DNA from: Candidatus Woesearchaeota archaeon
GTDB lineage: Archaea; Nanobdellota; Nanobdellia; SCGC-AAA011-G17; CAYFGV01
Assembly: GCA_964342845.1 (NCBI GenBank)
Contig: CAYFGV010000005.1
Coordinates: 1 to 40,429 of the forward strand
Direction: 5' to 3'
Length of the DNA stretch: 40,429 bases
The position numbers are program-made. Positions 1 to 6,000 of the stretch are shown piece by piece (positions within the stretch are counted from its first letter, which is position 1; the number at the start of each line of letters is the position of its first letter).

Positions 1-3000
1 TTGAATTTTTCTTCTATTTCTGTGTATATCTCTTTTATTTTTTTCCTTTCAAAGTCTTTTTGTAGTAAAGAAGATGGTTTTAAAATTAGATAATCTGCTT
101 GTCTTATTGCGTTTATTTCTAGGTTTGCTGAAGATTGTGATATAAAGAGAATTTGTAAGTCTTTGTGTCTTGCAATCAGAAGTAGTTCTGTAAGAAGTTT
201 GTTTGCATTTTTCATTGAATCTCTAGAACTGAATAAAATTCCTCCTTCATCTATTAAAACTAGTGAGTTATTTTTTATTTCTTCTATGTTTTCTACTACT
301 TTTATCCATTTTGGAAGGTCTTTGAAACCCATAGCATAACATTTTCTATTTTTTTGAGAGTGGATATTTTCTAATAATCTCATTCCAATTGCGCTTTTTC
401 CTGTACCTCTTGCTCCTAATATAATTCCTATTGTGCTTGGTTTGTTGATTAAGAAGTTTTCAAAATCTTGGAGATTTCCTGATTCTGTATGAATTTGTTT
501 AAAGGGATCTATGGTAGGAAGAGATTTTATTCTTTTAGTTTTTTTTGGTTTTGTTTCAGTTGTTTTCTTGAGAAGGCGATAAGTTCCTAAGCTAATGATC
601 TTTGCTGTTAAATAAACTCCTTTAAATATGGCAAAAATTATGTTTGTTCTCTTCTTCTTCGGCATTGGGTTATTATATAAGTGCAAGTTATATTTAAATC
701 TAGTGTTGTTTTTAAAATACGCCACGACCCGGATTTGAACCGGGATGCCCCGAAGGGCCAAGCTTGCTGTACTTAAATTCCAGGCTTGTGCCATACCAGA
801 TTAGGCGATCGTGGCATATGGTTTTGTTGATTTTGTTTGTTTATAAATGTTTTTGAGATTGAATAGAAAGGTTTATAAATAGATGTTCTCTCTGGAAAGT
901 AAGAAAAATGACAAATTATAATCAAGAAGAATGTAATATTTTTGGGCCCTATGGAAATACTGGGTCTGCTCCTTGTAACGGTGGGTTTGATTGGAGAAAA
1001 GGGAAATTAGCTAAAGAGCTTAATGGCAATGTTGTTAACTTTGCGGTAAATAATGATGCTGAATTGAAGAATGGTGTAGAAATCTTAGAGAAAGATGAGT
1101 CTTTTGTTTCTGCTGAAAACCGTTCTGGAGAGGTTTATTCTAAAGATAGTATTGAAGTACGTACTAGTGTTAAAAATAATGGTCATTTATCTGAAAACGG
1201 TGCTAATCTTAAAGGTGGTGTTGATTTGGATTCTGTGATATTTGGTTATGTTCTCGGATTGGGGGTCAAAGAACACGTAATAATGATTTAAGGAATGATT
1301 TGGGAGTTAAAGGTTATAGAAGATTTGAAGAATTGGTGATATCAAGGGTTATAAAACAATATAAACCAGATCATTACGGTGTTTCTTCAGACATAGTTGA
1401 AAAAATGAATTCGTAAGACTTATAAATAAGTGTTATTTGAAATTGATAAAATGATAAAACAATATAAATTAGATTTTGACAGAATGAATTTAAGTACTAA
1501 GGATGTATTAGATGCTCATAAAGAAGAACAAGGTGGTTATAAATCTTTATATGATTCTGATTCTAGACAAGAAGGAGAATCTATTTTTCGAATGTTAGAT
1601 CGTGTTCTTGGTCCTGATTATAAATAATTTTTGTGAAAATGAATACAATAGATAAGAAAGATCTTGAAATTTTGCTTTTTTCTAAGTTTGATCCTGGACA
1701 TAGGTTTGATGGTACCCGGGAAGAATTAAATAGAGAAGTAGGTAAGTATGTGGCTATTTTGGATATATGTGGTGCTGGTGGTAAAGGCCTTGAATTGCCT
1801 CTTGCTTATATTGCATATGGTTATGGTGAAAGATGTTTTGAGGAAAATTATGAAGTTAAATTACTTAGAAAAGACCTTGATGGTCGTTTATCTAATCTTG
1901 TTGAATCTGGTCTTTTAAAAAAGACAGAAGACAAATATTCTTTAATTTAATTTTTTAAAATAATCTAAAACTTCATCAATGTTATCTAATTGATTAATGT
2001 TTTTTCTTATTTTTGTAGAGTTATAGAAATCTTTAGTTAATATGTTTAATTCTACTAAATAATGAGCTTTTGTTAAGTTATATTTTTTTACTAATTTTAG
2101 GTATTTTAAAATTAATTTTATTTTATCCGAGTTTGTTTTTTTATTTTGAATTTCTTTAAAGATTAAAGGATTTCTAGATGCATATCTGCCTATCATAATG
2201 TAGTTTGTGTAATCTTTATATTTTTTATAAGATTCTAGAGAATTTATGTCACCATTTCCTATTACAATAGGTATTGAAGTTTTTATTTTTTTGAATATTT
2301 CCCAGTCTGGTTTTTGTTTATAATTTTGAGAAGGGGTTCTTGCGTGGATTGTTAAGGCTGAGATGTTTGATTTTTCACAAGCTAAAATAACTTGTTTTAG
2401 ATTTTTAGTTATTCTTATTTTTGCTGTTATTGGTTTTTTTATGTTTGATGTCAATAGAGTTAAAATTTCTTTTATTTTTTTGGGATTTTTTAATAATGCT
2501 GAGCCTGCGTCTAATTTTACTACTTTTCTTGATGGACAGCCTAAGTTAAAATCTATTATATCAAATTCTTTTTCTATTTTTAGGGCTGCTTTTAGGATTA
2601 GGTTTGGATCTGAGCCGAAAAGTTGAACACAGGAAGGTTTTTCATTTGTTGCTTTTTTTAGCATTGTTTCTATTCTTTTATCTTTGTTTAGGATTGCATG
2701 ACAATTAACGAATTCTGTTGTAGTTAATCCTGCACCTAGTTCTCTGCATAAGTGTCTGAAAGCTACATTAGTTACTCCTTCCATTGGAGCTAGGATTGCT
2801 TTTGAAGAGAGTTTAGGGAATTTCATTAAGTGTAATTTAATTTTAAGTTATTTTAAAAGTTATGTTTTTGTTAAAAAATATAGCGGGAGAAGGAATTTCC
2901 GAAAGAAACAATAAGTTTCATTCATTTGAACCTCCGACCTATACCCAAGCAAATATCTTATGATATTACACTCTCCGGGTGTCCCGAAGACAATTAGGAT

Positions 3001-6000
3001 CTTCTATGAGCCTTTCGCAATTATCAGATATTTTCTAATAATATCGACGAGCACTCCTAACTGCTCCATCCCGCTATGTGTTTAAAGAAAAAGTAGGAGT
3101 TTTTAAAGATTTTGTTTATTCGACTGTAACAGCTTTTGCTAAATTTTTTGGAAGATCAGGGTTATGTCCTTTTAAAACAGTTGTATAGTAAGCTAATAAT
3201 TGTAAAGGAATAACATTTACTATTGGATTTAAAATGTCTGGAGATTCTGGAACTCTTAGAACATAATCAGAAATTTTTTCTATTTCTTTGTCATTATGGT
3301 TGGCTACTGTTATTATTAATCCTTTTCTAGCTTTAACTTCTTGCATGTTGCTTATTATTTTTTCATAGATTGGGTCGTTTTTGTTTGCTATAAAGACTAC
3401 CGGCATATTTTCATCTATTAATGCTATTGGTCCGTGTTTCATTTCTGCTGCTGGATAACCTTCTGCGTGAATATATGAGATTTCTTTTAATTTTAATGCG
3501 CCTTCTAAAGCAACGGGAAAATTTACTCCTCTTCCTAAGAATAAGGCATTCTTTTTATTATAAATTTTTTCTGCTATTTTCTTAACTTGTTTTTTTTGTT
3601 TTAAAGTTTCTTTAACATATTCTGGGATTTTTTTGGTTTCTTCCGTTAAATATTCATAAGTTTTAAGATCAATTTTATTTAGTTTTCTTGCTAAATATAA
3701 GGTTAGTAGAATTAAACAAGCTACTTGACCTGTGAATGCTTTTGTTGAGGCAACACCTATTTCTGGGCCTGCATGGATAAAAATACCTGAGTCAACTTTT
3801 CTTGAGATTGTTGAACCAACTACATTAACTATTCCTAAAGTTGTGCAAAATTTTTTAGCATATTCTAGTGAGGCCAATGTGTCTGCTGTTTCTCCTGATT
3901 GGCTTATTACTATGATTAAATCATTTTCTGTTAGAACTGGGTTTCTGTATCTGAATTCCGAGGCATAATCAACTTCTACTGGGATTTTGCAATACTTTTC
4001 TATTATGTATTTTCCTATAAGGGCGGCATGCCAAGCAGTTCCACAGGCTGTGATTATTATTCTGTTTATTTTCTCTGGGAGTTTTATAGAAAGTCTGATG
4101 TCTTTGTCTATTCTTCCTGCTATTCTGTTGTTTAGGGTTTCTGCTTGTTCAAATATTTCTTTTTCCATGAAATAATCGAAATCGTTTTTTTCTATGGAAT
4201 CTAATTCCCAGTGAATATGCTTTATTTCTCTTTTGACTGTATCTCCGTTTAGTTTTGTTATTTTGTAACTGTCTTTTGTTAATGTTGCTATTTCATTATC
4301 TTCGAGATAGACTGCTTTTTTTGTGTGTTTTAGAAAAGCTGATGTATCTGAAGCTATAAATTTTTCATTTTCTCCTATACCTATAATCAAGGGACTTCCT
4401 TTTTTTGCTCCTATAATTTTGTTTTCTTTTTTGGAGATGATTACTAAACCATAAGTTCCTATTACTCTTTTTAGTGTATTTTTAACTGCTTGTTCTATGT
4501 TGTTTGTATAGTTTTCTTCTATTAGATGTGCTATTACCTCTGAATCTGTTTCTGATTTGAATATGTGTCCTTTTTCTATTAATTGTTTTTTTAAAGTGGA
4601 GAAGTTTTCTATTATTCCGTTGTGGACAATAGTTATTTCTTGTTTACAATCTGTGTGTGGATGGGCGTTTATTTTGTTTGGTTCTCCATGTGTTGCCCAA
4701 CGAGTGTGAGCTATTCCTAAATTTCCTTGTTTAATTTCTTTAAATGAATTTTGTAGTTGTGATATCTTTCCTGCACTTTTTATTATTTCTAATTTATTTT
4801 CTGAAGAAATACAAATTCCTGCTGAGTCATAACCTCTGTATTCTAATCTTTTGAGGCCTTCAATTAGAATGTTAGTTGTGTCTCTGTTTCCGATATAACC
4901 TATAATGCCACACATTTTGATAAGGAGGTGCCTAAAGACTGTTTTTAGGCAGTCTTTGGCTGGTTTTTAAAAAAGGGTTGATTATTAAAATGTTAAAAAC
5001 TTTATAACATCAATTTTTGATTTCTGATTATTCCATCTTTGTTTTCCTAGGTATTTTCTACCTAAATATTCTAGTTCTTCATTGCTTAAGCCCATTTTCT
5101 TGTAAGGTCTTAATTTTTTTCTTATTTTTTCCACCATTCTTAACTCCACCTCCATATTAGGATTTATAGGGAGGGCTTTATAAATAGGTTATGAAGGGAA
5201 AATCTATATTGCAAATCCGTAAACTTTATATAGTAAAATTACACCACTTTAAGATAATGGCATACTATGGTTTGATACCTAATTGGTTTTATGGTGTTGA
5301 TTCTCTGTTTGAAGTGTTTTCTTTAGTTGTTGCTTTGCTAATTGCTTTATTTAGTTATAGGGTTTATCAGCATACAAAGCAAAGAAACCAGTTTTATTTT
5401 TCTGTAGCTTTCTTAACTTTAGGTTTTTCTTATTTGTTTAAGGTTGTTTCTAATATTATGGTTTATCGTGAAGTTCCTGAGACTGTTGAATTAGGAATAG
5501 TTAGTGTACAGTCTTTTTTATTAGAGCAAGTTGCTTGGAGTGTTACTCTTAAAACTATTATGTACCCTTTGTATAAGTTGTTGTTTTTGATGGCTCTTAC
5601 TTTGTTATTGTTAAGTGTTGCTGGTGCTATGAAGAGAAGATATTATCCAATGTATTTTTATTTTATTTTTGTTTCTGCTGTTTCAAGTATTCATGAAGAT
5701 ATAGTTTTTTATATTATATCTACTGTATTGTTGGGTTTGATAGCATTTTATTATTATTTGAATTTTCTTAAGAATAAAACTAGAAATAAGAGATGGGTTA
5801 TGTATTCATTTTTTATTTTGGCATTTTCTGGATTGATGATTGCACTTATTGAGTTTAGTGGTTGGTTGTATGTTTTGGGTGAATTTTTACAGTTGGTTGC
5901 TTATTTAATATTGTTAATGGTGTTTATAGGGATTATTAAGAAAAATGGCTAAGAAAAGGACTAAATTGGAGATTTTGGAGGCTGTTTTAAATGTTGTTTA

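Follow-up and report, generated by a model that had tools for sequence, protein, structure and literature searches.

The window, a 40,429-nt stretch of DNA from an uncultured marine DPANN archaeon of the Woesearchaeota/Nanoarchaeota type, houses in the 289-bp spacer between dus and glmS a 195-nt minus-strand gene (3075–2881) that we confirm, from its sequence, to encode an archaeal initiator tRNA-Met and to be interrupted by four short bulge-helix-bulge (BHB) introns predicted to be spliced out. The introns lie at sites 29/30, 37/38, 43/44, and 59/60, measure 32, 24, 34, and 30 nt (120 nt in sum, 62% of the gene), and leave a product of 75 nt; two of the exons are only 6 and 8 bases long. The locus comprises the following features.

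3116–4915, minus strand: glmS, upstream neighbor, same strand as the initiator gene
3100–3107, minus strand: TATA-like box, 25 to 32 bases upstream of the tRNA, within the 40-bp gap after the glmS stop; putative own promoter, by sequence
2881–3075, minus strand: initiator tRNA-Met(CAU) precursor gene, 195 nt, five exons and four introns, CCA not encoded
3045–3075, minus strand: exon 1, tRNA positions 1–29, 31 nt; acceptor 5' strand, D-arm, and start of the anticodon stem
3013–3044, minus strand: intron 1 at 29/30, 32 nt; 4/4 central pairs, a 9-bp inner helix beyond a single U-U mismatch, and an outer helix of 2 bp
3005–3012, minus strand: exon 2, positions 30–37, 8 nt, with the CAU anticodon
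2981–3004, minus strand: intron 2 at the canonical 37/38 site, 24 nt; central 3/4, inner 5 bp
2975–2980, minus strand: exon 3, positions 38–43, 6 nt; anticodon stem 3' strand
2941–2974, minus strand: intron 3 at 43/44, 34 nt; 4/4 central pairs and an inner helix of 5 bp that is followed by a longer hairpin
2925–2940, minus strand: exon 4, positions 44–59, 16 nt
2895–2924, minus strand: T-loop intron 4 at 59/60, 30 nt; 3/4 central pairs, 8/9 bp in the inner helix, outer helix formed by the T-stem (5 bp)
2881–2894, minus strand: exon 5, positions 60–73, 14 nt; the last base is discriminator A73
2873–2878, minus strand: run of six Ts right after A73, possible terminator
1942–2826, minus strand: dus (tRNA dihydrouridine synthase), downstream neighbor, same strand as the initiator gene

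As a genome-wide survey's note had stated, the gene is missed in the genome by both ARAGORN and Rfam (RF00005), and the weak Rfam match that the note placed at a tRNA 5' half (25 bits) was recovered over the tRNA 5' end at 25.5 bits, with family S774. Upon removal of all four introns, ARAGORN called tRNA-Met(cat) with a score of 116; among 15 partly spliced forms, 3 were called as Met with a 37/38-type intron, 4 were miscalled, and 8 gave no call. The note's dissection of the gene, its segment lengths and product, and its placement in the 289-bp spacer were thereby reproduced, and motif-free alignment to the intron-less gene of relative G001 recovered the identical four insertions. Archaeal initiators are marked by an A1-U72 pair, a CAU anticodon, three G-C pairs (29-41, 30-40, and 31-39), and a purine 11:pyrimidine 24 pair. 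The spliced product forms a 75-nt cloverleaf in which all four stems are completely paired (7/4/5/5), and it carries A1-U72, CAU, the three consecutive G-C pairs, and A73, all of which the note had listed, as well as A11-U24 (G11-C24 in G001). All 75 of its bases agree with the intron-less gene of relative G197, and it matches that of G001, a member of the same family, at 72 of 75 positions, two of the three differences constituting one compensated D-stem pair. The note's description of a sole tRNA-Met gene also stands, as the 25 tRNA loci of this 84.8%-complete draft yielded neither another initiator gene nor any further tRNA with a CAU anticodon.

BHB-type motifs at all four sites, another claim of the note, were borne out. 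The central helices of introns 1 to 4 comprise 4/4, 3/4, 4/4, and 3/4 pairs, each in one register; inner helices are present throughout (at intron 1 after its mismatch), and outer helices at introns 1, 2, and 4, with intron 3, which has no contiguous 2-bp outer helix, being of the HBh' type. This pairing exceeds chance at all four sites: with thresholds taken from the observed values, shuffled introns did as well as the native ones in central and inner pairing in 25, 55, 1, and 200 of 20,000 trials for introns 1 to 4, respectively. The note had allowed the border of intron 4 to shift by a few nucleotides; this did not hold, as the BHB register fixes the intron at 2924–2895 and a one-base shift leaves a central helix of only 1/4. 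Shifted borders of intron 3 likewise leave only 1/4.

In relatives, the number of introns in the same gene, whose exon sequence is nearly invariant, ranges from zero to seven over 14 scored sites. Four or more introns, at shared sites, occur in 15 or more of 240 genomes of the order, representing 10 families; seven were found in G118 and five and six in other relatives, and G143, G053, and metagenome loci L223 and L232 have introns at the same four sites as this gene. These counts leave out L247 and L268 (failed parse) and L225 (cut by a contig end), and L073 was hand-counted as one intron because its parse was an artifact of a 1-base insertion. Four introns set no record and are not exceptional in this order. 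At the sequence level, the central helices covary with the exons: the 29/30 intron carries the A that pairs with U24 in 5 of the 7 genes with U24 and in none of the 36 with C24, and the 53/54 introns track four exon variants with a full 4/4 match in 20 of 22 genes. We assign the locus to a four-BHB-intron initiator gene because an intron-less gene identical to the product exists, because of the BHB geometry, and because of these compensatory changes in relatives. It is very probably a working single-copy gene, which would be transcribed and then freed of its introns one at a time, in order, by EndA and RtcB.

The note had further proposed that four introns exceed any number described. This stands against the journal papers, which give a maximum of three per archaeal tRNA gene in their accessible portions (PMC3239211, PMC4033280, PMC8450103), with the per-gene table of PMC11291895 possibly listing four or more; it fails against a preprint of October 2026 reporting up to five introns in one Asgard tRNA gene and against the relatives with five, six, and seven. 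The seven introns of G118 exceed the Asgard maximum.

The only splicing endonuclease found in the host genome, G000, is one EndA at C19, locus L001 1258–1788. It is a 176-amino-acid single unit collinear with the alpha4 enzyme of M. jannaschii, without (alpha-beta)2 or epsilon2 architecture, without a specificity loop (CSL, ASL, or N. equitans loop), and without the six residues that the N. equitans enzyme has inserted ahead of the catalytic His; all 86 aligned sequences have nine residues between the catalytic Tyr and this His. The enzyme is of this plain, loop-less alpha4 type alike in zero- and seven-intron genomes. RtcB ligase was not found in the 84.8%-complete draft and is present in 107 of 112 genomes searched in the order; the CCA-adding enzyme is encoded in the window.

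In the accessible parts of the literature, one of the closest parallels is found in the Thermoproteales (Pyrobaculum and its kin; Sugahara 2007/2008 via PMC4033280, PMC4090602, and PMC8450103), which likewise combine short BHB introns at canonical and noncanonical sites in one gene and in which one intron often must leave before the next motif forms (PMC8450103). They differ in a maximum of three introns per gene, compared with four here and up to seven in relatives, and in an (alpha-beta)2 enzyme with a specificity loop rather than a single loop-less subunit, and the gene described here is, unlike theirs, the initiator tRNA of a DPANN archaeon. ARMAN-2 ("Ca. Micrarchaeum"; PMC3239211, PMC3488258, and PMC12397907, as far as their accessible text extends) shares the DPANN host and T-loop introns at 53/54 and 59/60, but its epsilon2 EndA is a three-unit enzyme with an ASL loop. 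The initiator system thus would work like the Thermoproteales/ARMAN-2-type systems but is not a member of them by predicted enzyme type. The Asgard tRNA genes of the preprint, which does not use the words DPANN or initiator, also have many noncanonical introns at BHB motifs, repeatedly gained and missed by standard annotators; Asgard archaea are a different phylum, however, and carry two EndA genes per genome, compared with the one found here. In the portions seen of PMC3728597, the eukaryote Cyanidioschyzon merolae, with three introns at most, removes them in an order that follows BHB stability, the 37/38 intron last, an order resembling the one predicted here.

We propose that a TATA-like promoter of its own drives transcription of the precursor and that, as in established archaeal biochemistry, homotetrameric EndA would cut each intron at a 3-4-3 BHB motif, one by one, and RtcB would join the exons, with CCA added after splicing. 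Contigs of one metatranscriptome from the same sample (X9) gave no match to the gene, a result that has no bearing on its expression. The order of cutting would matter because the BHB motifs overlap. In the full precursor, the computed cost of forming the BHB is 0.8, 3.8, 6.2, and 11.9 kcal/mol for introns 3, 4, 1, and 2, respectively, intron 3 being the cheapest. In the likely order, the 43/44 and 59/60 motifs can form in the full precursor and probably leave early, 29/30 would follow, its BHB requiring an open D-stem, and 37/38 is most likely last because its full outer helix needs intron 1 gone (2 bp with intron 1 present, 5 bp after its removal) and because bases 38–41 are shared with the central helix of intron 3. 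Removal of intron 1 lowers the cost for intron 2 to 8.7 to 8.8 kcal/mol. A point against this reading is that the probability of the BHB helices of introns 1 and 2 is close to zero when the precursor is folded at equilibrium, and therefore enzyme binding must pay for them. The introns themselves are most likely site-stereotyped insertions, repeatedly gained or lost and kept cuttable by selection.

A decaying pseudogene or an assembly artifact, with the true initiator gene in the missing part of the draft, would fit a draft in which neither RtcB nor an elongator tRNA-Met was found. This reading is very improbable and already largely refuted by exons identical to an intact orthologue, by BHB geometry and a hairpin at every insertion, by the recurrence of four or more introns at shared sites across 10 families, and by independently assembled contigs that agree: X3 covers 2757–3030 with one other letter and no gap, X6 covers 2978–3183 with no differing letter, and the two, overlapping by 53 bases, together span the gene, which neither covers singly. 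We suggest that a plain enzyme would suffice because the intron geometry is strict. According to the portion of PMC3239211 available, alpha4 enzymes need a strict motif, and strict-motif cutting is at odds with the 3/4 central helices of introns 2 and 4, the outer helix of only 2 bp at intron 1, and the lack of a contiguous 2-bp outer helix at intron 3. A second endonuclease subunit or accessory factor conferring broad specificity, which would make the alpha4 reading wrong, would agree with the published tie between heavy tRNA disruption and (alpha-beta)2, epsilon2, or loop-bearing enzymes (PMC3239211, PMC5829648, and PMC4033280, in their accessible text) and with the fewer than four central pairs of 40 of 56 canonical introns. 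It is nevertheless improbable, as 122 of 147 noncanonical introns have 4/4 central helices and a single EndA-like match per genome (E ≤ 1) was obtained in five of five relatives (91 to 100% complete) and in G000, although the N. equitans beta subunit is detectable with the host EndA as query (E 2.6e-10).

The precursor may also contribute to the order. Bases 2999–2987 of intron 2 can form 12 bp with D-arm bases 3066–3055, matched by only 11 of 5,000 shuffles of intron 2. Across relatives, 37/38 introns (n = 34, 16 nt or more) pair with their own D-arm (positions 9–21) at a mean of -9.9 kcal/mol, compared with -6.8 for shuffles (z -7.1) and -8.4 for D-arms swapped among genes (z -4.3); no comparable signal was seen in four other intron classes or three other exon segments (z -2.7 to +3.0), the sign holds in 14 of 14 families compared with 8 of 14 for 28-30 introns, and the native intron pairs better than its reverse in 40 of 44 genes and its complement in 41 of 44. 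A tentative reading, added to ordered splicing, is that intron 2, by annealing to the D-arm on its 5' side, leaves bases 22–27 available for the BHB of intron 1 and stays uncut until intron 1 is out, so that the precursor programs its own splicing order. The introns at 29/30 and 37/38 of tRNA-Ile(UAU) in the same genome fit this (34 of 2,000 shuffles), and, compared with shuffled versions, the native intron 2 lowers the BHB cost of intron 1 in 33 of 44 genes, which supports a helper role across relatives, but the mean gain is only 0.8 kcal/mol among kin that are not independent, and in this gene the native intron raises the cost (6.2 kcal/mol, compared with 4.9 shuffled and 5.1 without intron 2). 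Pairing reaches p<0.05 in only 19 of 44 genes taken one by one and also in 2 of 7 without intron 1, and it is unremarkable in tRNA-Arg(UCU) (457 of 2,000) and tRNA-Ile(GAU) (483 of 2,000) despite their upstream stem introns. tRNA-Lys(UUU), with no second intron, pairs as well (3 of 2,000), which instead favors another cause without an ordering role: introns derived from inverted or direct D-arm copies, or a D-arm held unfolded to delay dihydrouridine or archaeosine modification until splicing. Copying would equally produce covariation with a gene's own D-arm, dus adjoins the gene, and 7 of 97 loci, including one duplicate of this locus, have a Dus-like start motif after the initiator gene. We hold this alternative, too, only tentatively, since 8 of 9 single-intron tRNAs of the genome lack the pairing and copying alone should decay in introns of 13 to 30 nt, which otherwise diverge widely. 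For the tRNAs of this genome, three loci were parsed by hand, and one further locus is a tRNA truncated by a contig end. Unlike the box C/D guide intron of euryarchaeal pre-tRNA-Trp, in which C and D boxes flank an antisense stretch, intron 2 holds neither box; a snoRNA match over intron 4 had an E value of 7.3.

Combining ordered splicing with the D-arm pairing, it is possible, although we hold it with reserve, that a plain loop-less alpha4 endonuclease processes initiator genes with up to seven introns, that the precursor encodes the cutting order through an anticodon-loop intron that pairs with the D-arm as scaffold and latch, and that intron load is set by RNA design rather than by subunit type or loops. 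If a loop-less homotetramer does cut all introns, the published rule of coevolution between enzyme architecture and intron load would fail for this lineage. An initiator tRNA is essential and here single-copy, yet its gene is mostly intron; because such genes are invisible to standard tools, tRNAs "missing" from DPANN drafts may be hidden rather than lost. With an exon that hardly varies and an intron count from zero to seven, the gene also provides a clean setting in which to study how introns are gained, lost, and spliced in order.

Some smaller observations concern the introns of the order. The last base of intron 2 is C in 31 of 39 genes that have a 43/44 intron, compared with 7 of 17 that do not, a trend only; an obligatory need of the 43/44 intron for the 37/38 intron in its outer helix was rejected, as L250 and L264 have the former without the latter. 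Outside the order, a 43/44 pattern built for this order, and so no measure of absence, gave 6 matches in 314 genomes of the class, none of which passed the parse (scores -3 to -29) or drew a call from ARAGORN. Transposition within the genome was likewise rejected, the four introns having no match of more than 17 bases elsewhere in the assembly; for three of the four, the best look-alikes are same-site introns of relatives.

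The four-intron initiator tRNA-Met gene claimed in the genome-wide survey's note is real and very probably functional. The features concerned are as follows.

3075-2881, minus strand, initiator tRNA-Met gene, 195 nt, within the 289-bp dus-glmS spacer
1942-2826, minus strand, dus, flanking the spacer
3116-4915, minus strand, glmS, flanking the spacer
3044-3013, minus strand, intron 1 (29/30)
3004-2981, minus strand, intron 2 (37/38)
2974-2941, minus strand, intron 3 (43/44)
2924-2895, minus strand, intron 4 (59/60)
26568-26915, CCA-adding enzyme

Deletion of the four segments joins exons of 31, 8, 6, 16, and 14 nt into a 75-nt product that ARAGORN calls tRNA-Met(cat) with a score of 116. 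As is characteristic of archaeal initiators, this product has an A1-U72 pair, G-C pairs at all three positions of 29-31/39-41, an A11-U24 pair, and A73. The statement that ARAGORN and Rfam miss the gene was also confirmed: no tRNA was called by ARAGORN on the unspliced locus, and RF00005 gave zero matches there at E<=10. The 25-bit Rfam match at the locus arose because the terminal stretch of the RF02896 consensus (S774, "Staphylococcus sRNA") resembles the 5' end of an initiator tRNA. The product is identical at 75/75 positions to the intron-less initiator gene of a relative (G197), and a motif-free alignment with the intron-less initiator gene of G001, from the same family, yielded the identical four insertions at 72/75 identity. 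Two independently assembled marine metagenome contigs cover the locus, one (X3) spanning 2757-3030 gap-free with one differing letter and the other (X6) spanning 2978-3183 with zero differences; they share 53 bases, and neither alone spans the whole gene. A further contig, X7, is apparently the same data as X6.

The implied record of four introns did not hold, as four is one case among many in the order. A 5'-end sequence pattern matched 57/240 genomes of the order, with no introns in 24, one in 12, two in 8, three in 9, four in 3, and five in 1, a set that under-counts initiator genes with D-arm introns. A 43/44-intron pattern matched in 28/240 genomes at 29 places, 27 of which parse as initiator genes, and both patterns combined place four or more introns in at least 15/240 genomes from 10 families. 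G237 and G238 have five introns, and G118 has seven (7/8, 20a/21, 29/30, 37/38, 43/44, 53/54, and 64/65). From metagenomes, 20 loci were found by a pattern requiring three introns, and the 19 that could be parsed have three introns in 7, four in 9, and five, six (L233), and seven (L220) in one each. The seven sites of L220 are those of the G118 locus (L255), 7/8 and 64/65 included. True parses scored 68-133 and had complete or almost complete stems, against scores of <=7 for chance matches. Both seven-intron loci seemingly lie directly upstream of a dus gene, like the initiator gene of the window.

Journal papers give three introns as the archaeal maximum per tRNA gene (PMC3239211, PMC8450103, PMC4033280), a preprint of October 2026 (10.64898/2026.10.13.758758) describes up to five in a single Asgard tRNA gene, and per-gene counts among the 228 introns of three Asgard genomes (PMC11291895) may reach four or more. 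In the literature searched, which took in few subscription papers, we found no account of a DPANN tRNA gene with more than three introns, of any tRNA gene with six or seven, or of intron:D-arm pairing.

The central helices of the bulge-helix-bulge (BHB) motifs of introns 1 to 4 are paired 4/4, 3/4, 4/4, and 3/4, each in a single register, and their inner helices comprise 9 bp (past a U-U mismatch), 5 bp, 5 bp plus a longer hairpin, and 8/9. The outer helix has 2 bp in intron 1, 2 bp in intron 2 with intron 1 present and 5 bp without it, is broken in intron 3, and has 5 bp in intron 4. Shuffled introns equaled the observed pairing in 25, 55, 1, and 200 per 20,000 trials, respectively. Across 89 distinct precursors, central helices show exon-intron covariation: the 29/30 intron has an A facing U24 in 5/7 genes and the same A in 0/36 C24 genes, and 53/54 introns have a 4/4 central helix in 20/22 cases, across four exon variants. 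Such 4/4 helices occur in 122/147 noncanonical versus 16/56 canonical introns. C33 replaces the usual U33 in several initiator genes (L030, L034-L038, L051-L054, L075-L079, and others), and the 37/38 central helix changes along with it. L229 and L254 (from G116) carry an intron at 4/5 whose central helix is built with the 5' leader, and thus cutting must precede leader removal there.

The 37/38 intron would most likely be removed last, because the computed cost of forcing its BHB in the full precursor is the highest (11.9 kcal/mol, versus 0.8 for 43/44, 3.8 for 59/60, and 6.2 for 29/30) and because bases 38-41, also required for the intron 2 bulge and outer helix, lie in the intron 3 central helix. 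Without intron 1, the 37/38 cost is 8.7-8.8 kcal/mol. Counting against this order, however, the BHB motifs of introns 1 and 2 are unpopulated at equilibrium in folding calculations. In a three-intron algal tRNA, the 37/38 intron has likewise been shown to be last (PMC3728597).

Pairing between the 37/38 intron and the D-arm is real as a pattern. Bases 2999-2987 of intron 2 can form 12 pairs with D-arm bases 3066-3055, equaled by 11/5,000 shuffles, and 37/38 introns of relatives pair with their own D-arms more strongly than shuffles (z -7.1) or swapped D-arms (z -4.3) do, with no comparable signal among their other intron classes and exon segments. The sign was consistent in 14/14 families, versus 8/14 for the control class. 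A self-scaffolding role of intron 2 is possible: the intron 1 BHB was cheaper with native than with shuffled intron 2 in 33/44 genes (mean gain, 0.8 kcal/mol), whereas the gene of the window showed the opposite (6.2 versus 4.9 kcal/mol shuffled). Elsewhere in the genome, D-arm pairing was present in tRNA-Ile(UAU) (34/2,000 shuffles as good) and in tRNA-Lys(UUU) (C15:7021-7111, minus strand), whose sole intron (17 nt) and D-arm are joined by 10 base pairs (3/2,000 shuffles), and was not seen in Arg(UCU), Ile(GAU), or 8 further single-intron genes.

Heavy tRNA disruption has been tied to (alpha-beta)2, epsilon2, or loop-bearing splicing endonucleases (EndA) in PMC3239211, PMC4033280, and PMC12397907, and several DPANN lineages have a loop-bearing alpha4 enzyme according to PMC5829648. 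The single EndA of this genome has 176 aa and is 54-67% identical to relatives labeled Woesearchaeota or Nanoarchaeota, which places the host among the DPANN archaea. Apart from one 2-residue gap, its alignment with the Methanocaldococcus jannaschii alpha4 enzyme is continuous from residue 16 through the C-terminus. In the alignment it is missing the 6-residue insert before the catalytic His of Nanoarchaeum equitans, whose EndA loop is described in PMC3488258. The catalytic Tyr-His spacing is 9 residues in 86/86 aligned relatives (6 taken by handle and 80 chosen for similarity to this EndA), and genomes with 0, 0, 4, 5, and 7 initiator introns have one such enzyme each. Since EndA thus appears from its sequence to lack (alpha-beta)2, epsilon2, or loop features, intron tolerance is likelier owed to strict motif geometry than to a relaxed enzyme. 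What the four-intron gene adds is this apparently loop-less EndA and an intron that may be self-scaffolding, each open to testing in vitro. The ligase RtcB was not found in the draft but was found in 107/112 genomes searched of the order. In many rtcB genes of the order (e.g., G045, G070, G093, and G209), the open frame, of 800-1,010 aa, is split close to position 50 of the profile, probably by an intein; in others, stops close to the 5' end interrupt the match, which could reflect mRNA introns or frameshifts.

The genome holds a second four-intron gene, tRNA-Ile(GAU) (C11:15345-15546, plus strand; sites 15/16, 30/31, 37/38, and 43/44), with a 75-nt spliced product (ARAGORN score, 122); the canonical intron, at 60 nt, forms a weak inner helix and possibly conceals a nested intron. 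tRNA-Ile(UAU) (C8:710-829, minus strand), also present in G001, has introns at 29/30 and 37/38 and is miscalled Val by ARAGORN; the draft yielded no CAU-type tRNA-Ile gene and no elongator tRNA-Met gene. In the window, tRNA-Ser(GGA) (720-815, minus strand) has a 13-nt canonical intron and is miscalled Ala, and tRNA-Gly(GCC) (21848-21940, minus strand), unseen by ARAGORN, has a 21-nt intron at about 53/54. At 8534-9559 (minus strand), a nucleotide-kinase-like domain is fused to a dCMP deaminase domain.
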